Part shown: piece after piece, positions 19,150-64,000 of the stretch
Position numbering within the stretch: position 1 is the stretch's first letter
Layout of the letters: each line of letters starts with the position of its first letter
NCBI GenBank assembly: GCA_020438105.1
Contig: JAGQVE010000005.1
Location: 3,473 to 67,472 of the forward strand
From: Bacteroidales bacterium
GTDB lineage: Bacteria; Bacteroidota; Bacteroidia; Bacteroidales; JAADJA01
Length of the DNA: 64,000 nucleotides
Direction: 5' to 3'
Position numbers and translations under genes: made by a program
The notes under the pieces: model-generated
What the model saw: only the letters and a program-made list of their open reading frames with translations
What the model was told of the DNA's origin: nothing
Database searches by the model: none

Positions 19150-22100
19150 ATGGAATTGAACAAGCAAACGAAACAACAACTTGCCGAAGAACTAAAAAAA
19201 ATGGAAGCAGAGCTCAGACACTGGGAAGATAATTTCCGGCTGCTCTACGAAAATGCTCCTGAAATGTTCTTTACCATCTCAGCACAAGGGAATATTATAT
19301 CGGTAAATAAAAACGTCATTGAGCTTTTAGGTTATAAGCTGAAGGAGCTCATCGGAAAGCCTATCTGGAAAATTATTCATCCGGATGATTTAAAGCTTGT
19401 AAAATCGAAAATCAAATACCTAATTGAAAACAAGATAATAAGTGCGGAGTTAAAATTCCGTAAAATCCGCAATGATAAATCAACCATGTTTGTCCATGAG
19501 CGCACGCACCTTTTATTGGATGAAGATGGGGAGGTAAAAGAAGTGCACCTGAGTTGTTCAGATTTAACGCAATCAATTGATCCAGTTGACGAATCACCAC
19601 TATATCAGTCCCGGTTCACAGATTTGACAGATCATTTAAATGTGGGTCTTTACCGAAGCACTGTTGATGCCGACGGGACCTTTATTGAGGTGAATGCTGC
19701 TTTTGTGAGAATGTTGGGTTATGAATCAAAAGATGAGTTGCTCAAATTAAATGTTTCGGAAATTTATAAACATACAACTGATCGTTCCGAACTCCAGAGA
19801 AAGATCCATGCGAAGGGTTTTATTAAAAACCAGGAAGTGATCCTCAGAAAAAAAAATGGGGAAACCATTAATGGTTCTTTATCAGCTATTCTGACCCGCG
19901 ATGAGCATGGCAATCCTGCATTTTACGATGGTATAATTGATGATATTTCAGAAACAAAACTCATTTTAAATACAATCCGAGAGTCGGAATACAAATACCG
20001 CTCACTTGTTGAGTCGTTTTATGATATCATTTTTATTACTGATTATGAAAGTAAAATGCTATTTGCAAATCATGCATTATTTAAACATACCGGTTTTACT
20101 TTGCGTGACTTTCAGATGCCGCAAAATGATAATCAGTTTATCCATCGCGACGACAGGGAGAAAGTGGCAAAGTTTATAACTTCATTTATTAATAATATCC
20201 CGCGAAATTCAGGGGTTATCGAAAACAGGTTTATCGATAAATATGATAATGTACATTGGTTTTCGTCAGTTATTACCAAAATAGACTACGACAATAAACC
20301 TGCCCTGCAATTTATTGTAAGAGACATTACAAAACAGAAGGAAGCAGATGAAGAATTGAAAAAAAGAGAGCGGCAATATGGAACGCTTTTTAACCTTTCG
20401 CCCAATGGGATTATTATTGAGGATAGTGAGGGCTTAATTCTGGACGTAAACCCAGCTTTTTGTGAATTACTGGGATACGATAAAAATGAATTACTGGGTT
20501 TTAATGTCAAGTCACTTGCCCATCCGGATGCACGCTACCAGGTGGAGGACAATATTCGAAAAATTCTGAAAGGAGAACAATTAAGCCATACTGAAAAAAG
20601 CATTAAAAAGGACGGTACCATTGCATATGTTCATTTGAACGAAAGGAAATTTGATCTTCCGGGAGGAAAAACCGGGATAATATGCATTGCCGAGGATATA
20701 ACGGAGCAAATAAAAGCAGAAGAGGCCCTCAAGCAAAGCGAACAGAAATATCGTTTGCTGATCGAAAATCAGAGCGACCTTGTTGTTAAAGTTGACGCTG
20801 ATGGCAGGTTCACATTTATCAGCCCTTCCTACTGCCGGCTGTTTGGTAAATCGGAAGCCGATTTGCTCAATAAAAAATTTATGCCTCTTGTTCATCATGA
20901 TGACAGAGAAAGAACTGCGGAGGAAATGAAAAAACTCTATAAACCTCCTTTTACATGTTATGTGGAGCAAAGGGCAAAAACAATCGAAGGCTGGCGATGG
21001 ATAGCATGGATTGATACTGCAATTTTAGATGAAAACAACCGGGTTAAAGAAATCATTGGAGTTGGTCGTGATATAACCAAAAGAAAAAATGCAGAGGATG
21101 CATTGCTAAAATCCGAGGAAAGTTATAAAGGCCTATTCAACAGTGCTGCCGATGCAATTTACATTGTGGACGAAAAGGGCAGCTTGCTGGATGCCAATGA
21201 GGAAGCTGTCAGAATTTATGGCTTTTCAAGGGATCAACTCATTGGTAAACAAATAAGTCTTTTTGCAGCCTCCGTTAAAAATAATCTGAAAGAGATTAAA
21301 CGTCTGTTAAAAAGTGCGTTTTCCGGAAATCCGCAGAAATTTGAATTCTGGAGCAAAGATAAAAAAGGCAGGGTTTTCCCGCAGGAGGTACGACTTCATA
21401 AAAGTACTTATTTTGGAAAGGATGTATTGGTGGTTTTTGCCGAGGATATAACTGAGCGAAAAGCTTGGCAGCAAAATCTGGAGGAAAAAGAAAAACGATT
21501 CAGAAGAATATTCAATGCATTTCCCGATGTTTACTTTAAATCAAACACGGAGGGTGTTTTAAAAGAAGTTAGTCCATCAATTCTCAAAATTACAGGATAT
21601 ACGCCCACTGAGGTTATTGGTGTAAAATCATCCAATTTTTATTACAGTCAGGACGAGTGGAAGGCTATTGGAAATGAGCTTAACACCAAAGGTGAGGTTA
21701 ACGATTTTAATATTCAGATCGTTATCAAAGATAATAGCCGGATTTATTGCTCCCTCACGGCAAGATTAATTAATGATGATAATAATAAACCCTATGAAAT
21801 AGAGGGGGTATTGAGAGATATTAATGATCGAATTAATGCTGAACTCGAAATAAAAGAAAACCAAAGAAGAATTTCCACCCTCATGGCCAATTTGCCCGGA
21901 ATGGCCTACAGGTGTAAAAACGACCGCGACTGGACCATGCAATTCATTAGCCAGGGTTGCCAGGATTTAACAGGATATAAACCTGAATCATTAATTAATA
22001 ATCGCGACCTCTCTTACAATGATTTAATTTTATCTGAAGATCAGGATATGGTTTGGAAAACAATCCAAACAGCCCTTAAAAAGAAAAATGTATTCCAAAT

Positions 22101-23778
22101 GGCTTACCGAATATCTCATGCATCGGGTGAAATAAGATGGGTATGGGAGCAGGGTATGGGAATATTTGATGACGATAATAATCTGTTAGGCCTCGAAGGA
22201 TTTATTTCAAATATTACAGAGCAAAGGGTAGCCGAAGAAGAAATTCGCAAGCTTTCCAGATCGGTAGAGCAAAGTCCCACGATTATTGTAATTACTGACC
22301 TGGGGGGCCGGGTTGAATATATAAATCCCCGGTTTGTGGAGGTTACGGGCTATTCCAACGAGGAAATAATTGGCAAAAATCTGAGGATACTTAAATCGGG
22401 CAATACGCCCAATGCCGTTTATAAAGATCTATGGAAAACTGTAACGGCGGGTAAAAAGTGGTCAGGTGAATTTCAGAACAGGAAGAAAAACGGAGAATTA
22501 TACTGGGAATCGGCTAACATCTTTCCGCTGAAAGATGAAAATGATAAAATTGCCCATTACATTGGCATGAAGGAAGATATTACAGAGCGCAAAAAGATGG
22601 AACGGGAATTAATTATTGCCAAAGAAAAAGCTGAGGAATCGGATAAGCTCAAGTCGGCTTTCCTCGCCAACATGTCGCACGAAATCCGCACCCCCATGAA
22701 TTCGATCATTGGTTTTTCTCAATTGCTTGATGATCCCGACTTGTCAATCGATGAGCGAAATCACTTCATCAACCTTATTCAAAATAGCGGAAACGATTTG
22801 ATGAGTCTTATTGATGATATTATTGATATCTCAAAAATTGAGGCTGGACAAATGAAGATTTTCAAATCGCAATACATGGTTGATCAGTTAATGAGAGAAC
22901 TCTACCAAGGATTTCATGAACATGTAAAAACCAATCCCAAAACCAACAAGCTAAAAGTTATTTATAAGGCTCCCGATCATGCAGAAAATATTGTAGCCAA
23001 CACCGATATTGACCGCTTTAAGCAAGTGATCAGGAATTTGTTTTATAATTCCATTAAGTTTACTGATAAAGGATACATTGAATTTGGATTTGAATATGAA
23101 AACCCAAAATTTAAAAACGAGCTTTTATTTTATGTAAAAGACACAGGAATAGGAATAGATCCAGAAAAGAAAGAGCTCATTTTTAACAGTTTTACACAGG
23201 CCAATGAAAGTGATACCAGACTTTATGGAGGAACTGGTTTGGGATTGGCGATCTCTAAAAATATTGTGGAGTTATTGGGGGGTAGAATTTGGGTTGAGTC
23301 GAAACCGGGAAAAGGAGCCACCTTTTACTTTACCCTGCCCAGGATAAATGAACATGGAACGGCAATTAATACAAAACCAGCTGGTAAAGAACATCAATTT
23401 CATGAATATAACCTAACCGGTAAAAGCATACTTGTGGTTGAAGATGACGATTCGAGTTACGACTTTTTTGAACGAATTCTCCGGCGTACCGGCGCAAACC
23501 TGATGCGTGCGGAAGACGGGATGCAAGCCGTTAAAAAATTCAGGCAAAATAAATTTGATGTTGTGTTGATGGACATCAGGCTTCCTCGTATGGATGGTTA
23601 TAAAACCATGAAAAAAATTAAATCAATGAATCCGGAGATACCCGTGGTAGCACAAACTGCATATGCCATGCAAGGAGAGAAAGATAAGTGCCTGAAGGCC
23701 GGATTTGACAATTATCTTTCAAAGCCAATTAAAATCAATGAACTTCTGAAAATGGTCAGCCGCTATATTAACAGTTAA
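19150..23778 (+). CDS. multi-PAS hybrid sensor histidine kinase with C-terminal receiver domain
   Basis: It has many tandem PAS/PAC units, about nine by eye, each ending in a DIT(E/K)(R/Q)K-type boundary. These are followed by the HisKA H-box (FLANMSHEIRTPMNSIIGF), HATPase_c (GTGLGLAISKNIVELLGGRIWVES) and a receiver (ILVVEDD...VLMDIRLPRMDGY). No TM segment is obvious. Confidence 0.9.
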   Translation: MELNKQTKQQLAEELKKMEAELRHWEDNFRLLYENAPEMFFTISAQGNIISVNKNVIELLGYKLKELIGKPIWKIIHPDDLKLVKSKIKYLIENKIISAELKFRKIRNDKSTMFVHERTHLLLDEDGEVKEVHLSCSDLTQSIDPVDESPLYQSRFTDLTDHLNVGLYRSTVDADGTFIEVNAAFVRMLGYESKDELLKLNVSEIYKHTTDRSELQRKIHAKGFIKNQEVILRKKNGETINGSLSAILTRDEHGNPAFYDGIIDDISETKLILNTIRESEYKYRSLVESFYDIIFITDYESKMLFANHALFKHTGFTLRDFQMPQNDNQFIHRDDREKVAKFITSFINNIPRNSGVIENRFIDKYDNVHWFSSVITKIDYDNKPALQFIVRDITKQKEADEELKKRERQYGTLFNLSPNGIIIEDSEGLILDVNPAFCELLGYDKNELLGFNVKSLAHPDARYQVEDNIRKILKGEQLSHTEKSIKKDGTIAYVHLNERKFDLPGGKTGIICIAEDITEQIKAEEALKQSEQKYRLLIENQSDLVVKVDADGRFTFISPSYCRLFGKSEADLLNKKFMPLVHHDDRERTAEEMKKLYKPPFTCYVEQRAKTIEGWRWIAWIDTAILDENNRVKEIIGVGRDITKRKNAEDALLKSEESYKGLFNSAADAIYIVDEKGSLLDANEEAVRIYGFSRDQLIGKQISLFAASVKNNLKEIKRLLKSAFSGNPQKFEFWSKDKKGRVFPQEVRLHKSTYFGKDVLVVFAEDITERKAWQQNLEEKEKRFRRIFNAFPDVYFKSNTEGVLKEVSPSILKITGYTPTEVIGVKSSNFYYSQDEWKAIGNELNTKGEVNDFNIQIVIKDNSRIYCSLTARLINDDNNKPYEIEGVLRDINDRINAELEIKENQRRISTLMANLPGMAYRCKNDRDWTMQFISQGCQDLTGYKPESLINNRDLSYNDLILSEDQDMVWKTIQTALKKKNVFQMAYRISHASGEIRWVWEQGMGIFDDDNNLLGLEGFISNITEQRVAEEEIRKLSRSVEQSPTIIVITDLGGRVEYINPRFVEVTGYSNEEIIGKNLRILKSGNTPNAVYKDLWKTVTAGKKWSGEFQNRKKNGELYWESANIFPLKDENDKIAHYIGMKEDITERKKMERELIIAKEKAEESDKLKSAFLANMSHEIRTPMNSIIGFSQLLDDPDLSIDERNHFINLIQNSGNDLMSLIDDIIDISKIEAGQMKIFKSQYMVDQLMRELYQGFHEHVKTNPKTNKLKVIYKAPDHAENIVANTDIDRFKQVIRNLFYNSIKFTDKGYIEFGFEYENPKFKNELLFYVKDTGIGIDPEKKELIFNSFTQANESDTRLYGGTGLGLAISKNIVELLGGRIWVESKPGKGATFYFTLPRINEHGTAINTKPAGKEHQFHEYNLTGKSILVVEDDDSSYDFFERILRRTGANLMRAEDGMQAVKKFRQNKFDVVLMDIRLPRMDGYKTMKKIKSMNPEIPVVAQTAYAMQGEKDKCLKAGFDNYLSKPIKINELLKMVSRYINS

Positions 23779-35297: not shown

Positions 35298-36959
35298 ATG
35301 AAAACACTACTATTTACTATTCTCTCATTTTTTTGTATAGTTGCTGTTCAGGGACAGCAAATTGCCCGTGATAAAGTAATTGTTGAAATTGGTACCGGAA
35401 CATGGTGCTATTACTGTCCGGGGTCAGCTCTTGGAGCTGATGACTTAATTTCTAACGGAAAAGAGGTTGCCGTTATTGAACATCACGGTCCTGCTGGTTC
35501 AGATCCATTCGCCACTACGGGCTCAGTTGCCAGAAATACCTTCTACGGAATTACAGGTTATCCCACGGCCTGGTTTGATGGTGGAAATGCCGTAGTTGGT
35601 GGAAGCCACACCGCCAGTATGTATAGCAATTATCTTTCGAAGTACAACCAACGCATAGCAGTTCCCTGTTCTTTTTCGCTTGAAATGAACGGATTCAACA
35701 GTGGGTTAGATTATACAGTGATTGTTTCTGCCGAACAAGTGGCATCTTATGGTGGTGCCGGGGTTACCTTACACCTTGTGTTGACCGAGTCAGATATTAT
35801 TTATAGCTGGCAGGGACTTAGTGAACTCCATTTTGTAAATCGCTTAATGGTTCCTAATCAAAACGGAACATCCGTTGTTTTTGCCGGAATCAATGATGTT
35901 GTAAGCACCCAACTAACTTTTTCTCTTGATCCATCTTGGGTTCCCGAGCATTGTGAACTGGTTGCTTTTTTGCAGGATAATGCAAATAGGGAGATTCTTC
36001 AGGGAATGAAAGTTTCTTTAACAGATTTATTACCCACAAGTTTTAACAATGCAACATGCCAGGCTGTTTCGATGGTTCCGGTAACCAATTGCGAGGGCCA
36101 GTTGGCACCTGTTGTTTCTATTTCAAATGATGGTGCGGAAACCCTCGAATCGTTGGATATAAATTATCAGGTTAATGAGGAAACCATAAATACATTTAAC
36201 TGGTCAGGTAGTTTAGCTTTTGGCCAATCCACCGATATTGAATTACCAGTCGTATCTTTCGATATATTAAATGAAAACAACCTGGTAGTGTATACTACCA
36301 ATCCAAATGGTAATCCGGATGAAGATCCCATGAATGATACTACAAGCACCTCCTTCATGGCTGCTCAGCAAGTTATTCCAGATATTTACCTGTTCCTCAA
36401 GTTAGATGATAATCCTGAAGAAACCACCTATAAATTAATGAATTCAAATGGTGATGTTATCTATTCCGGTGGGCCTTTTACCACGCCACAAGCTTTTGTA
36501 AAAGATACCTTTGAGCTTTCGATGAATGATTGTTACACTTTTACCATCAATGATGCAGGTGGAAATGGTTTACAAAGCGGATCGTATTATGCATTGCGGG
36601 AAAGCAATTTTAATATGATTTACGAAAATGATGCCTTTTCTGATGCCGATGAAATGGTACAGTTTGATGCGGTAGCTGTAGGCGTAGAAGAGATTACAAA
36701 TGCAAGTGAATTGATGGTATTTCCTAATCCTGCCACCGACGTAATCAATGTAAAATTTGAAGTTTCAAATTCAGAACCTGTTGAAATCACACTCTATAAC
36801 CTTGTTGGAGAGATTGTTTATACCTCGGGAGTGCAATCCTACCCTATGGGCGCAAAAACTAAAAGTATTAATGTTGAAAATAATCCATCAGGGGTTTATT
36901 TCCTAAGGTTGAAAATTGGAGACCAATTGTTTACACAAAAAATCTCTGTTACTAAATAA
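35298..36959 (+). CDS. secreted thioredoxin-fold CxxC protein (Omp28-related-like N-domain), T9SS cargo
   Basis: Signal peptide, then VIVEIGTGTWCYYCPGSA, with Cys codons TGC at 35406-35408 and TGT at 35415-35417. An uncharacterised central or C-terminal region follows (DDNPEETTYKLMNSNGDVIYSGGP), then a type-A CTD (VFPNPATDVINVKF...VYFLRLKIG). Confidence 0.75.
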   Translation: MKTLLFTILSFFCIVAVQGQQIARDKVIVEIGTGTWCYYCPGSALGADDLISNGKEVAVIEHHGPAGSDPFATTGSVARNTFYGITGYPTAWFDGGNAVVGGSHTASMYSNYLSKYNQRIAVPCSFSLEMNGFNSGLDYTVIVSAEQVASYGGAGVTLHLVLTESDIIYSWQGLSELHFVNRLMVPNQNGTSVVFAGINDVVSTQLTFSLDPSWVPEHCELVAFLQDNANREILQGMKVSLTDLLPTSFNNATCQAVSMVPVTNCEGQLAPVVSISNDGAETLESLDINYQVNEETINTFNWSGSLAFGQSTDIELPVVSFDILNENNLVVYTTNPNGNPDEDPMNDTTSTSFMAAQQVIPDIYLFLKLDDNPEETTYKLMNSNGDVIYSGGPFTTPQAFVKDTFELSMNDCYTFTINDAGGNGLQSGSYYALRESNFNMIYENDAFSDADEMVQFDAVAVGVEEITNASELMVFPNPATDVINVKFEVSNSEPVEITLYNLVGEIVYTSGVQSYPMGAKTKSINVENNPSGVYFLRLKIGDQLFTQKISVTK

Positions 36960-36983
36960 GCTTTATTGATAAGCGCAAATTAA

Positions 36984-37010
36984 AGCGGGGTCATAAACCC
37001 CGCTTTTTTT
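36984..37010. terminator. rho-independent terminator
   Basis: AGCGGGG-TCATAAA-CCCCGCT followed by a T-run. Confidence 0.8.
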
Positions 37011-37071: not shown

Positions 37072-37079
37072 TATATTTG
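37072..37079 (+). promoter_or_regulatory. Bacteroidota -7 box-like motif (TAnnTTTG)
   Basis: TATATTTG lies 42 nt upstream of the ATG at 37121. This is a motif match only. Confidence 0.3.
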
Positions 37080-37120: not shown

Positions 37121-38764
37121 ATGAAACGAACATTACTTTCTTTTATCGTGCTGCTCACCGCTTCTCTGGCCCTGACTGCACAAACGGTCCAGCGCGACAA
37201 CGTCGTGATTGAGATCGGAACAGCTACCTGGTGAAGTTACTGCCCATATGCAGCAGCTGCAGCTGACAATTTGATCGCAAACGGTTTTGATGTCGCCGTT
37301 ATGGAACATCACGTATCTTCTTCCGCAACAGGTTTTTCCAATACCTATTCACAAGCCCGCGTTTTGTATTACGGAATCAGTGGAATTCCAAATTCATTCT
37401 TCGATGGTATTACTAGTGTGCTGGGCGGATCCACAGGTACTTACAATTCATTTTTATCCAAGTATAATCAACGCATTGCAGTTCCTTCAAACTTTACTGT
37501 CGCGATGAACGGAATGAACGAAGGTTTGGATTACACTGTGTTAATTAATATGGAAATGGTTGAACCATATACTGGCACCAACCTGGTTGCTCACCTGTCA
37601 CTTACCCAATCGGGGGTAATGTATGGAAGCACCCCATTTAATTATGTAACCCGCCGATTATGGCCAAGTGCAAGTGGTACTGCTGTTGATTTCAGTGGAG
37701 ATCCCAATCAAACAGTAATGCTTCAGTTTACTATGGATGCCGGCTGGAATCTGGATAATTGTGAGTTTATTGCATGGATTCAGGATAACTCTACGAAAGA
37801 AATTTTACAAGCAGAAAAAGTTGCTGTTAATGATCTGATGCCTATGTTTTATGACAACGCAACTTGCTTTGACTTGAGCATGGTTCCGGTAACCAACTGT
37901 GCCGGAGAGGTTTCTCCAAGGGTATCAATTACCAACGAAGGAGCATCAAACCTCACAACACTGGAAATCAATTATGTTATAAACGATGAGGGTATAAATA
38001 CTTTCAACTGGTCAGGCGACTTGTCTTATGGAGAGGTTGAGGAGGTTGATCTGCCAGCTGTTCCATTTGAAATAATGGAAGATAATAATCTCATGGTATA
38101 CACCACCAATCCAAATGGTAATCCCGACGAAGATCCGGTGAATGATACAACATATACTTCATTTACATCTGCTATTGAAGTGATTCCTGACATTCACCTG
38201 TATTTGAAGCTCGACGATAACCCGGAAGAAACGACCTGGGAACTGAAAAATTCAGCAGGTGATGTAATGTATTCAGGTGGTCCTTATGCTAATCCCGGAT
38301 TATTTGTTCAGGAAACATTCGCCCTTACCGAAGACGATTGCTACACTTTTTATATTTATGATGAAGGTGGCAACGGAATTGAAAGTCCCGGATTTTTTAA
38401 ATTAATGGATGGAAGTTTCGGAATGATTTACGAAAATAATGCATTCTCAACTGCCAATGAATCAATGCAGTTTGCTATTGATTTGGTTGGTATTGAAAAT
38501 CCAGCCACCAATAAATCCTTTAATGTATATCCGAATCCTTTCAATGATTTTACCAATGTTCAGTTTACACTGAATGAAAAATCAGAAGTAGAGGTAGCTA
38601 TGTACAATGTGATCGGAAAACAAGTATACCATTCAGATTTGCAAACCCTGAATGCCGGACAACAAAATATACTGATTGATGCAAGTAAGCTTGACTCCGG
38701 TATTTACTTTATTACCCTCATAAAGGGTGGAGAAATAAGCTCACAAAAAGTAACATTGTATTAA
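37121..38764 (+). CDS. secreted thioredoxin-fold protein paralog with in-frame TGA at the first redox Cys position (candidate UxxC selenoprotein; alternatively a nonsense-mutated pseudogene), T9SS cargo
   Basis: The ATG at 37121 opens an intact signal peptide (MKRTLLSFIVLLTASLALTAQ), followed by VVIEIGTATW-[TGA 37232-37234]-SYCPY. The TGA is in frame with the 497-codon ORF 37271..38764, which contains no other stop or frameshift. It is collinear with the 35298 paralog through to the type-A CTD. The gene has its own promoter-like box and terminator. Confidence 0.55.
37251..37265 (+). other. GC-rich hairpin downstream of the in-frame TGA (candidate SECIS core)
   Basis: CAGC-A-G [CUG] C-A-GCUG, with the apical loop 23 nt after the TGA. 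A positionally equivalent hairpin, UCAGCUC [UUG] GAGCUGA, lies at 35424-35440 in the Cys paralog. Folded by eye only. Confidence 0.3.
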
Positions 38765-38784: not shown

Positions 38785-38816
38785 AAGCGGTATTGTCTGT
38801 CAGTACCGCTTTTTTT
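38785..38816. terminator. rho-independent terminator
   Basis: AAGCGGTA-(11-nt loop)-TACCGCTT followed by TTTTT. Confidence 0.75.
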
Positions 38817-62229: not shown

Positions 62230-63519
62230 TTAATTGAGTTCTTTTCGTTTGATTTCGTGTGTTGATTTTTTCCAGATGGTTCTTGTTCTTTCGAATATTT
62301 TACCAATAAAACTAGGGGGAAGCTTTTCTATCAGGCTTCGTGCGATGCTTGTTCCCATAATTAAAAACAATCCATTGATCAATAGCTCCATCGCAAACCT
62401 GCTAAATGTAAATCCCTTGATTTCATAACCATAATCTGGATTTGGTTTTCCAAGCCATTTTCTTAATCGCATACGGATGAAAGTACCTCTTTTTTTTAGG
62501 TCGTAACCGTGTGAATGCATTATAATTGCCTCATTTTCACTTATCTCATCCATGGCCAAAGTCCCATCAGCTAGCATTGCATCAACTATTTCCTGTCCTT
62601 TTTGGGAACGTACGATCATCATCGAAAAACCTTTTCCCCGTTCTTCATAAACAGGAGCCCAGGCATCACCACCAGAAATGTCAGTAAATTCATTACTGAG
62701 GTCAGTGCATAGCAGGCTGTTTTTGAGAATGTGGAATGGGATCAGGTAATTAGCATGAAACTTTGGTAATTCTATTACTTTCCCTGATCTGAATTCAACG
62801 CGCATATTTCCCGGCCATTCACCATATCTAAAATATAGTTTTTTGATTTGGGTGTGATCCTTTTCTCCATAGGAACGGATAAAGCTTTTAACCGATGAAA
62901 AATGAAGCGTATTGCCATAAAAGGGTCCCAATATGTAAGCAATTTTTTTTACAATGGGATTGCCTGCCATCTGAAGTTTTCTGATTGATTGTATTTGCCC
63001 AGGTAAACCCACATAAGCCAACCGACCATTGAATGCTTCCATTTCTGGTAAAATTTCATTAACTGAGCTAATAATATATTTGCTTTGTGCCGATTCCAGA
63101 ATCTCATCTTTTGTTTTAGCAATAAATGGCTCTGTTAACCAGGGTTCGGAATGAGACATACGTAACGTAACGACCCCTTCAATTTTCTTTTTTTCGAGTA
63201 ACCAAATCAACACCTGTGTGATGACTCCTCCACTTGCAGCATTTCTTCGAACAATTTCATCCGTGGTATGACCGATATAAATGTGTTTGTAGGTTCCAAT
63301 GAATCGATGAAATGGATGATCTACTCCAAAAACTCTTTCATTATAATACGGAAAATTGAATTCTTTTCCTGAGCAAGCTAACCACATTCTTTCAGCAAGC
63401 TCCTCATCAAGTGTCTCAACTATTTCTGGAATATATTTCCCAGTTTTATCCCTAAACCGAACTTTTCCACCCGATAATCCAACACAGCTACCACACCTGT
63501 TACATAGGTGTGAATGCAT
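62230..63519 (-). CDS. coenzyme F420 hydrogenase/dehydrogenase beta-subunit-like (FrhB family) Fe-S/flavin protein
   Basis: CNRCGSCVGLSGG Cys cluster and the NAASGGVITQVLIWLLEKKKIEGVV block typical of FrhB-family N and C domains. The start is set at the ATG at 63519, 16 nt after the upstream stop. The ORF-track start at 63645 would overlap the methyltransferase gene by 110 nt. Confidence 0.65.
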   Translation of the reverse strand: MHSHLCNRCGSCVGLSGGKVRFRDKTGKYIPEIVETLDEELAERMWLACSGKEFNFPYYNERVFGVDHPFHRFIGTYKHIYIGHTTDEIVRRNAASGGVITQVLIWLLEKKKIEGVVTLRMSHSEPWLTEPFIAKTKDEILESAQSKYIISSVNEILPEMEAFNGRLAYVGLPGQIQSIRKLQMAGNPIVKKIAYILGPFYGNTLHFSSVKSFIRSYGEKDHTQIKKLYFRYGEWPGNMRVEFRSGKVIELPKFHANYLIPFHILKNSLLCTDLSNEFTDISGGDAWAPVYEERGKGFSMMIVRSQKGQEIVDAMLADGTLAMDEISENEAIIMHSHGYDLKKRGTFIRMRLRKWLGKPNPDYGYEIKGFTFSRFAMELLINGLFLIMGTSIARSLIEKLPPSFIGKIFERTRTIWKKSTHEIKRKELN

Positions 63520-63535
63520 CACATCCGAAAGTTTT

Positions 63536-64000
63536 TCAATGCTTTTCACAGATATAAAATTGACGAATTCCCAATTCGGATACAAAAGTATGCTGAAATT
63601 TTTGAATAATCCGCTCACCCCACTTTTGGAGCCACTGAGGACCAACAGGAATTAAAACCGTTCCCTTGTGTTCCAACAATTTCCAACCCGTTTTTTGTAG
63701 CATCGTTTTAACTTCGGATGAGCGTAAAAAACGGTGGGGACCCTCACCGTGTCCCCCCAATAAGAAAGTATAAATCCGATACGGAATTTCACTAGTTAAT
63801 GGTGGGCAACTCAGTACCATACGGGCATTATCAACAGCTACCCGGCTTAACTCGGTGAGAAATGCGATAGGGTCTTCCACATGCTCCAGTGTCTCAAGAG
63901 TTAGTATTTTGTCAAACGTATGGCTTTTGAATGGAAGACTTGAATAAGAGCTGATTTTTTTTTGAATTACATAAGGACGAATATGTTTAGCCACATCCAT
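63536..64000 (-). CDS. class I SAM-dependent methyltransferase, C-terminal part (N-terminus beyond window edge)
   Basis: FDKILTLETLEHVEDP (post-I/II methyltransferase type-11-like block) and ARMVLSCPP. The ORF is open to the window edge and ends in TGA. Confidence 0.7.
   Translation of the reverse strand: MDVAKHIRPYVIQKKISSYSSLPFKSHTFDKILTLETLEHVEDPIAFLTELSRVAVDNARMVLSCPPLTSEIPYRIYTFLLGGHGEGPHRFLRSSEVKTMLQKTGWKLLEHKGTVLIPVGPQWLQKWGERIIQKFQHTFVSELGIRQFYICEKH

Follow-up and report, generated by a model that had tools for sequence, protein, structure and literature searches.

A predicted type IX-sorted UxxC selenoprotein of the Omp28-related kind, next to its cysteine-form paralog, in a Bacteroidales bacterium

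The selenoprotein family closest to the gene described here was predicted in 2008 by Zhang and Gladyshev from 74 TGA-containing marine reads, as a thioredoxin-like (Trx-like) protein with a UxxC motif, U being selenocysteine (Sec) (PMC2398784). In an inventory from 2026 that covers 119 families of prokaryotic selenoproteins it appears as "Hypothetical protein GOS_C", with the model NF045500 and the UxxC motif (PMC13188914 Table 1), and the NCBIfam title of this model is "Omp28-related selenoprotein". A second system for comparison is HBP35 of Porphyromonas gingivalis, a cargo protein of type IX secretion (T9SS) whose thioredoxin activity requires its two Cys residues (PMC2907840, PMC3120885). 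We compared with these a gene found in a 64,000-nucleotide stretch from a Bacteroidales bacterium (assembly GCA_020438105.1, contig JAGQVE010000005.1, positions 3,473 to 67,472), which is called the window throughout and in whose coordinates all positions are given. The gene, at 37121-38764 on the forward strand, contains an in-frame TGA, and we consider it probable, at roughly 85%, that it encodes a 547-residue selenoprotein with UGA 37232 read as Sec. This reading is supported computationally by a conserved TGA, Sec/Cys pairing, an in-frame N-terminus, a hairpin that covaries, the domains present and the homology with GOS_C; Sec insertion itself, the sel machinery, the surface location and a redox partner are what we infer beyond these observations.

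We first set the predicted protein against GOS_C. A GOS_C read from the 2008 supplement (JCVI_READ_1092961114687, PMC2398784) scored 336.7 bits to NF045500, while the proteins compared from the family of the window gene remained far below the 200-bit cutoff of that model, at 55.6 bits for the window protein, 69.1 bits for its Cys-form paralog and 43-77 bits for eight relatives. The same read aligned with the window protein by BLASTP at 28% identity (E=3e-8), and its U fell opposite window residue 38, which means that the Sec-bearing domain and the Sec site were already known. Both proteins place Sec in a UxxC motif at the homologous position, at the start of a homologous N-terminal Trx-like/Omp28-like domain, and share the same U-x-Y-C-P motif. 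The two families are also alike in having many Cys homologs and an N-terminal signal-like sequence, and in being cut short at U by gene callers.

However, GOS_C is shorter (377 model positions and called fragments of 319-335 aa, compared to approximately 550 aa in the window family), and the window family additionally possesses two beta-sandwich domains and a sorting domain for the T9SS. Among the GOS_C proteins listed, none has a Por_Secre_tail domain and some have TSP_3 repeats. The sources differ as well, GOS_C being from marine surface water and the window family mostly from metagenome-assembled genomes (MAGs) of uncultured Bacteroidales. The window protein is best described as a predicted variant, new in its architecture and its phylogenetic position, of a kind of selenoprotein that was already known, on a divergent branch that is unannotated. 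An earlier note on this stretch, made from its letters alone, had regarded the combination as undescribed; this overstated its novelty, with an Omp28-related UxxC selenoprotein known since 2008 as GOS_C/NF045500. The literature that was searched contained no paper joining type IX secretion or Omp28 with selenoproteins. It was further noted that database proteins of the GOS_C/NF045500 type (P0121-P0136) are themselves called N-terminally short, with 73-78% query coverage, and that some of them carry thrombospondin type 3 repeats (PF02412).

HBP35 resembles the window protein at the level of fold and sorting. Structure prediction and the Foldseek search were performed with the Cys-form paralog, which is 49% identical to the Sec protein, and the best match of this model in the PDB was HBP35 (5y1a; E=4e-10, TM 0.60 on target), which was also the only sequence-level PDB match at the motif. 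The HBP35 motif VVLEVFTAEWCGYCPGG and the window segment VVIEIGTATWUSYCPYA share the same N-terminal strand and motif, and both proteins carry a C-terminal sorting domain as T9SS cargo. HBP35, for which a hemin-binding role is also described, differs in having Cys instead of Sec and in its length of 344 aa, and its sequence similarity is marginal (E=0.17, with 16% identity in the structural alignment). The exported UxxC selenoproteins in the inventory (DsbA-like, DsbG-like, thiol:disulfide interchange and TlpA/redoxin proteins; PMC13188914 Table 1) belong to other families. They share with the window protein a thioredoxin fold, Sec as the N-terminal residue of UxxC, export and Cys-form paralogs, but are periplasmic, whereas the window protein is predicted to be sorted by the T9SS to the cell surface.

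We examined the reading frame of the gene in detail. From ATG 37121 to the terminal TAA (38762-38764), the only stop in frame is the TGA at 37232-37234, which is codon 38 among 547 codons and constitutes the predicted Sec codon on the basis of aligned codons, six assemblies and the U of GOS_C. The N-terminus MKRTLLSFIVLLTASLALTAQ (37121-37183) resembles a signal peptide as judged from sequence, and the redox motif W-U-S-Y-C (37229-37243) is predicted to lie where helix alpha1 of a thioredoxin fold has its N-terminus. In the mechanical list of open reading frames (ORFs), the start is placed at TTG 37271, downstream of the TGA. A tandem Cys-form paralog of 553 aa lies immediately upstream on the same strand (35298-36959); its identity to the Sec protein is 49% over the full length, and the codon in the TGA column is TGC (35406-35408). 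Each of the two genes is followed by an intrinsic-terminator-like hairpin (36982-37006 after the Cys paralog; 38785-38811, on the forward strand and with a T-run, after the Sec gene). TGA is also the terminal stop of three other window ORFs (4985, 11823 and 63536). In these respects the earlier note was accurate, as it had described a signal peptide from ATG 37121, a TGA at codon 38 with the frame open onward and free of frameshifts, a paralog TGC in the same alignment column, a C-terminal sorting domain and a terminator after the gene, and TGA used as an ordinary stop elsewhere in the window.

The domain content was consistent with an exported T9SS cargo protein. A Trx-like domain with an Omp28-like beta-sandwich was assigned to residues 22-240 (37184-37840, forward strand) from PF11551, NF045500 and the model of the paralog. 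With U written as C, the Sec protein scored 38.7 bits to PF11551 (Omp28), above the gathering cutoff of 34.9, and the Cys paralog scored 30.0 bits, below it. A T9SS type A C-terminal sorting domain was identified at residues 469-547 (38525-38761, forward strand), with 55.4 bits to PF18962 compared to a cutoff of 27 (E=7.4e-15) and 44.7 bits to TIGR04183 compared to a cutoff of 23, and the sorting domain and the Omp28-like region were present in both paralogs. The AlphaFold2 model of the Cys paralog (mean predicted local distance difference test score, pLDDT, 91.4) contains a signal helix followed by a thioredoxin-type b-a-b-a-b-b-a unit, in which a strand at residues 27-33 leads to CxxC residues 37-40 just before helix 1 (40-52). 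Beyond this unit come a beta-sandwich, two more beta domains and the sorting domain. P90, the conserved Pro before strand 3, was invariant in the homolog alignment, and together with the model of the Cys paralog this identifies a thioredoxin fold.

We then assessed how widely the TGA is conserved. The protein encoded downstream of the TGA is recorded unchanged in six independent assemblies from different sequencing runs, and all six possessed the identical TGA, in genes differing from the window gene at 0-2 of 1647 nucleotides (nt). A broader homolog set was taken from the DNA of 79 loci in species-representative genomes (GTDB), nearly all of them MAGs of uncultured Bacteroidales or other Bacteroidota. 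At the codon aligned to window codon 38, TGA was found in 32 further genes from 29 loci and TGT or TGC in approximately 60, and the N-terminal 166 residues of the 32 TGA homologs were 30-75% identical to those of the window protein. The paired occurrence of Sec and Cys forms by which selenoproteins are recognized (PMC13188914), an in-frame TGA at a conserved Cys column, was therefore observed both for the window gene, against these Cys homologs and the adjacent paralog, and for the further TGA genes. All 33 Sec-form genes, the window gene included, have an in-frame ATG and a signal-peptide-like sequence approximately 37 codons before the TGA, and 31 of the 33 (30 of 32 without the window gene) comprise 541-557 codons with exactly one TGA. 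The stop at the catalytic Cys column was always TGA and never TAA or TAG.

In a neighbor-joining tree, the Sec forms occupied at least five clades interleaved with Cys forms. In several MAGs, different contigs carried TGA paralogs, two or three in all, and genes paired in tandem as Sec/Cys or Sec/Sec recurred among the homolog loci. The database records were also informative. The closest homologs, approximately 60 proteins with 50-72% identity, are called as 487-500 aa covering 89-91% of the query and begin just past the CxxC position, while full-length matches of 550 aa are more distant; short calls of this kind are the signature of a stop met by gene callers in many genomes. Relatives of the window protein appear there under no name but "T9SS type A sorting domain-containing protein", in entries that are truncated.

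Several individual loci in this set deserve mention. One Sec-form subgroup (L002:10115, L013:10112, L037:3638 and L043:10115) reads ...TDAVG-U-PYCPS, in which Gly replaces the otherwise near-invariant Trp before Sec and one residue is extra. Two adjoining Sec-form paralogs were found in tandem within one genome (L045:8145 and L045:10100) and in divergent orientation at another locus (L073:6974 on the reverse and L073:8230 on the forward strand), and the MAG CAVPSZ01 contained three TGA genes in total, including that of L005. A Sec-form gene at L069:10001-10642 has a second stop after codon 214 and represents a decaying copy or an assembly error. It was also noted that an Omp28-like T9SS subfamily carries the classical CGPC motif (L036:8345, L042:8419, L048:8225, L049:2056 and L064:8384); its genes lie directly upstream of a CxxCP-type gene in several MAGs, and the L036 copy has an early stop.

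Bacterial Sec insertion requires a hairpin a short way past the UGA. We characterized the sequence following the TGA. A hairpin resembling a selenocysteine insertion sequence (SECIS) was identified at 37245-37273 on the forward strand through RNAalifold, pair counts and a Cys-form control. Its lower stem joins 37245-37248 with 37270-37273, continuing through U37249-A37268 and G37250-C37267, and its upper stem joins CAGC (37251-37254) with GCUG (37262-37265), leaving A37266 and A37269 bulged. The loop AGCUGCA (37255-37261) has 7 nt and begins 20 nt past the UGA. The TTG 37271-37273 taken as the start by the gene caller falls within the 3' arm of the lower stem.

With nt 1 taken as the U of UGA, RNAalifold recovered stems 14-17/39-42 and 20-23/31-34 with a 7-nt loop from the gapless alignment of the 28 Sec genes that form the main group. 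Over ten pairs (these stems plus pairs 18-37 and 19-36), 90.7% of cells were paired in the 28 genes compared to 81.4% in column shuffles, a level reached by none of 500 shuffles, and pairing fell to 19-50% when the partners were slid along the alignment. Compensatory changes at synonymous sites were observed at five pairs, including pair 16-40 (GC 12, AU 6, UA 5), pair 17-39 (AU 11, GC 11) and pair 21-33 (AU 22, UA 6), the last of which corresponds to 37252/37264 and connects two Ala codons through their third positions. In a fifth Sec clade (L052, L055, L072 and L073), a different and longer hairpin of 12 bp occupies the same place. These statistics ignore phylogeny, a concern that is lessened by the five separate Sec clades.

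The same structure was imposed on 52 Cys homologs as a control, the Sec and Cys alignments being equally divergent (77% mean column identity each). Here, 75.4% of cells were paired compared to 73.9% in shuffles, and at the free positions 14-42 and 21-33 only about half of the Cys homologs were paired. The median energy of the consensus hairpin was -6.2 kcal/mol in Sec forms and -4.0 kcal/mol in Cys forms (Mann-Whitney; p=4e-7). Third codon positions within the hairpin had an entropy of 0.86 bits in Sec forms compared to 1.66 bits in Cys forms, while outside the hairpin the values were 1.16 and 1.46 bits. The A at nt 24 and the G at nt 42 were invariant in Sec forms only. As a check, the earlier note had pointed to orthologs with TGA at this column and a covarying hairpin downstream; the TGA was found in 32 homologous genes and the covarying hairpin in the 28-gene alignment.

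The details of the fold proposed earlier fared less evenly. The self-complementary tract at 37251-37265 exists, and the conserved stem consists of its outer 4 bp (CAGC/GCUG), but the inner G-C pair with its CUG triloop is not conserved; the functional hairpin is predicted to be CAGC-N7-GCUG plus the lower pairs rather than the CUG-triloop fold. A hairpin in the Cys paralog (35424-35440), which had been put forward as its positional equivalent, is present but is not kept in the orthologs of that paralog, and the base pair said to be swapped between the two genes is not the informative covariation. In full, the Cys paralog contains at 35423-35441 a perfect 8-bp hairpin, GTCAGCTC TTG GAGCTGAT, within coding sequence at the SECIS-equivalent position. 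It appears terminator-like in the scan and was not conserved in the orthologs L012 and L013:8292; it seems to have arisen from the S-A-L-G-A-D codons, either by chance or as a proto-SECIS.

Under the preferred reading, the ribosome would read UGA 37232 as selenocysteine, directed by the in-coding mRNA hairpin at 37245-37273, which presumably recruits SelB with Sec-tRNA(Sec). The Sec residue would serve as the N-terminal attacking residue of W-U-x-x-C in the thioredoxin-fold/Omp28-like domain. The predicted product consists, in order, of a signal peptide, the thioredoxin/Omp28-like domain, two beta-sandwich domains and the T9SS type A sorting domain. It would cross the inner membrane through the Sec translocon, then the outer membrane through type IX secretion, to reach the cell surface, export being predicted from the signal peptide together with the sorting domain. 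The proposal in the earlier note of an exported, T9SS-sorted UxxC selenoprotein beside a Cys-form paralog is supported in this respect by the Sec/Cys pairing, the TGA homologs, the intact frame and the covarying hairpin.

A number of observations weigh against Sec insertion. First, the hairpin in the window itself is thermodynamically weak. The published bacterial SECIS (bSECIS) model has a loop of 3-9 nt, an upper stem of 4-16 bp and a minimum free energy (MFE) of at most -7.5 kcal/mol (PMC13188914 Fig. 2A). The 7-nt loop, the 4-bp stem with two pairs past the bulged A, and the spacing (main group, 20 nt; L052-type clade, 24 nt) agree with this model, but the window hairpin reaches only -5.1 kcal/mol, with a family median of -6.2 and a range of -1.8 to -13.0 kcal/mol. 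A competing hairpin, UGCAG-CAG-CUGCA, is slightly more stable, which means that the conserved structure is not the minimum-energy fold, and the 60 and 86 nt after the UGA fold no better than shuffles (z +0.73 and +0.49). The hairpin lies only at the 6th percentile compared to synonymous recodings, and nothing informative came from comparing MFE values for nt 10-46 in the window. The hairpin signal comes from the comparison across genes. The A-A-x-G-A-D peptide moreover dictates three of the four upper-stem pairs, so that pairing of approximately 74% is expected even in Cys forms. The bSECIS model also asks for a G in the first two loop positions (PMC13188914); the window loop AGCUGCA fits marginally with a G at position 2, and most relatives (AUUAGGA, ACAAGGA, AAUGGGA) have none there, their loops beginning with A-N and carrying a conserved GGA on the 3' side.

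Second, tRNA-Sec, selA, selB and selD were not seen in the 64-kb window, approximately 8 kb past each of its ends or the flanks of the 79 loci, the rest of the genomes being unsearched. Rfam and ARAGORN returned nothing on the window, ARAGORN returned no tRNA on 30 Sec-form loci, and tblastn with E. coli SelA, SelB and SelD gave no matches in the window and the 79 loci. Sec decoding was reported in 2006 as not detected in Bacteroidetes (PMC1794560), and a literature search on Bacteroidales with selB or selD returned nothing relevant.

These points give some room to the explanation that the TGA is a true stop, in which case the gene would be split or decaying, any product would depend either on initiation within the gene (at TTG 37271 or at a Met downstream) or on low-level near-cognate read-through with Trp or Cys, and the hairpin would be a by-product of the A-A-x-G-A-D codons. 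HBP35 does yield truncated cytoplasmic forms from internal starts (PMC2907840). We nevertheless regard this as improbable, at somewhat below one chance in ten, because the 37 codons upstream of the TGA and the 12 codons from the TGA to the TTG are conserved in frame, as protein sequence, in 33 genes from at least five clades, and because an internal start would give a product without a signal peptide yet with a T9SS sorting domain. The synonymous-site constraint and the compensatory changes occur in the TGA forms only, and the stop is TGA in every case, with neither TAA nor TAG seen, and is invariably placed at the catalytic Cys column.

The earlier note considered the simplest alternative to be a nonsense mutation by one nucleotide (TGC/TGT to TGA) or a sequencing error; we took this to mean a mutation of recent origin, or a fault of sequencing or assembly, confined to one genome. 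A single base change would suffice and a Cys paralog adjoins; however, the same TGA in six independent assemblies and in 32 further homologs excludes this for practical purposes, and the Sec gene remains fully open despite its divergence from the Cys paralog. That TGA is a sense codon throughout the genome (code 4 or 25 type) is just as implausible: TGA is a rare stop in the window (two of 31 long ORFs tallied, plus 63536), but three well-supported ORFs still end in it, a scan of the window for further TGA read-through candidates returned short spurious ORFs only and no credible in-frame TGA, and the family genes have one TGA each, always at the Cys column.

Taking the gene as a selenoprotein, its most likely role appears to be that of a surface thiol/selenol-disulfide oxidoreductase of the HBP35 type, as suggested by the structural match to HBP35 and by the T9SS peptidases in the neighborhood. 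Such an oxidoreductase may serve the flanking gingipain-like cysteine peptidases, either keeping them reduced or opening disulfides in their substrates, and if so could supply a surface selenol reductant to these co-clustered enzymes. The conserved peptidase neighborhood suggests surface redox support of proteolysis. More tentatively, and with the odds somewhat against it, the large clade that is unannotated as selenoproteins could as a whole represent T9SS-exported cell-surface selenoproteins of uncultured anaerobic Bacteroidales.

For annotation, the closest database homolog proteins are at present recorded without their signal peptide and active site, a systematic misannotation, and the NCBI selenoprotein model NF045500 does not reach the window family. 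The corrected annotation would add a predicted extracellular-side selenoprotein in the phylum where Sec decoding went undetected in 2006 (PMC1794560). If the tentative reading of the whole clade is true, this would be the first selenoprotein cargo of the T9SS, Sec decoding would be widespread in this order, for which there is hardly any record of it, and the family would have undergone at least five Cys/Sec switches. A plausible reason for such switches would be that a proto-SECIS hairpin, suitably spaced, is already formed by the codons of the conserved A-A-x-G-A-D peptide. The interleaved and often tandem Sec and Cys forms offer a natural series in which to ask why Cys is replaced by Sec, and allow a test of SECIS origin from coding sequence.

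We also examined the surroundings of the gene. Upstream, a putative promoter element was read from the sequence at 37072-37079 (forward strand), where TATATTTG matches TAnnTTTG 42 nt before the ATG. TAnnTTTG is the consensus of the Bacteroidetes -7 promoter motif. A sigma-70 promoter scan performed at chance level and was uninformative at this candidate box.

The Sec gene and its paralog lie in a run of same-strand T9SS-cargo genes at 23982-57212 (forward strand). This run contains an M14 carboxypeptidase (23982), four paralogous C25 gingipain-like peptidases (27288, 31027, 38926 and 46852), a GEVED/BNR protein (43028) and PKD proteins (51234 and 52893), and at least seven of the neighboring genes carry the same T9SS sorting domain as the Sec gene. 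At the loci of the window clade among L001-L016, the Omp28-like genes are likewise flanked by C25, M14 and GEVED genes, and the overall order is the same. Directly upstream of this cargo island, at 19150-23778 on the forward strand, is a gene for a hybrid sensor kinase of 1542 aa that combines seven PAS domains with HisKA/HATPase and a receiver domain and is a possible regulator of the island.

Two further genes on the reverse strand were noted. At 426-1598, a gene encodes a thiol-disulfide oxidoreductase with DUF4369 and an AhpC/TSA/thioredoxin-like (TlpA-type) domain. At 62230-63645, an FrhB/FdhB-like gene (F420 hydrogenase beta-type) lies amid glycosyltransferase, epimerase, MBOAT and LPG-synthase-like genes, and is an unusual companion for a surface-polysaccharide locus.

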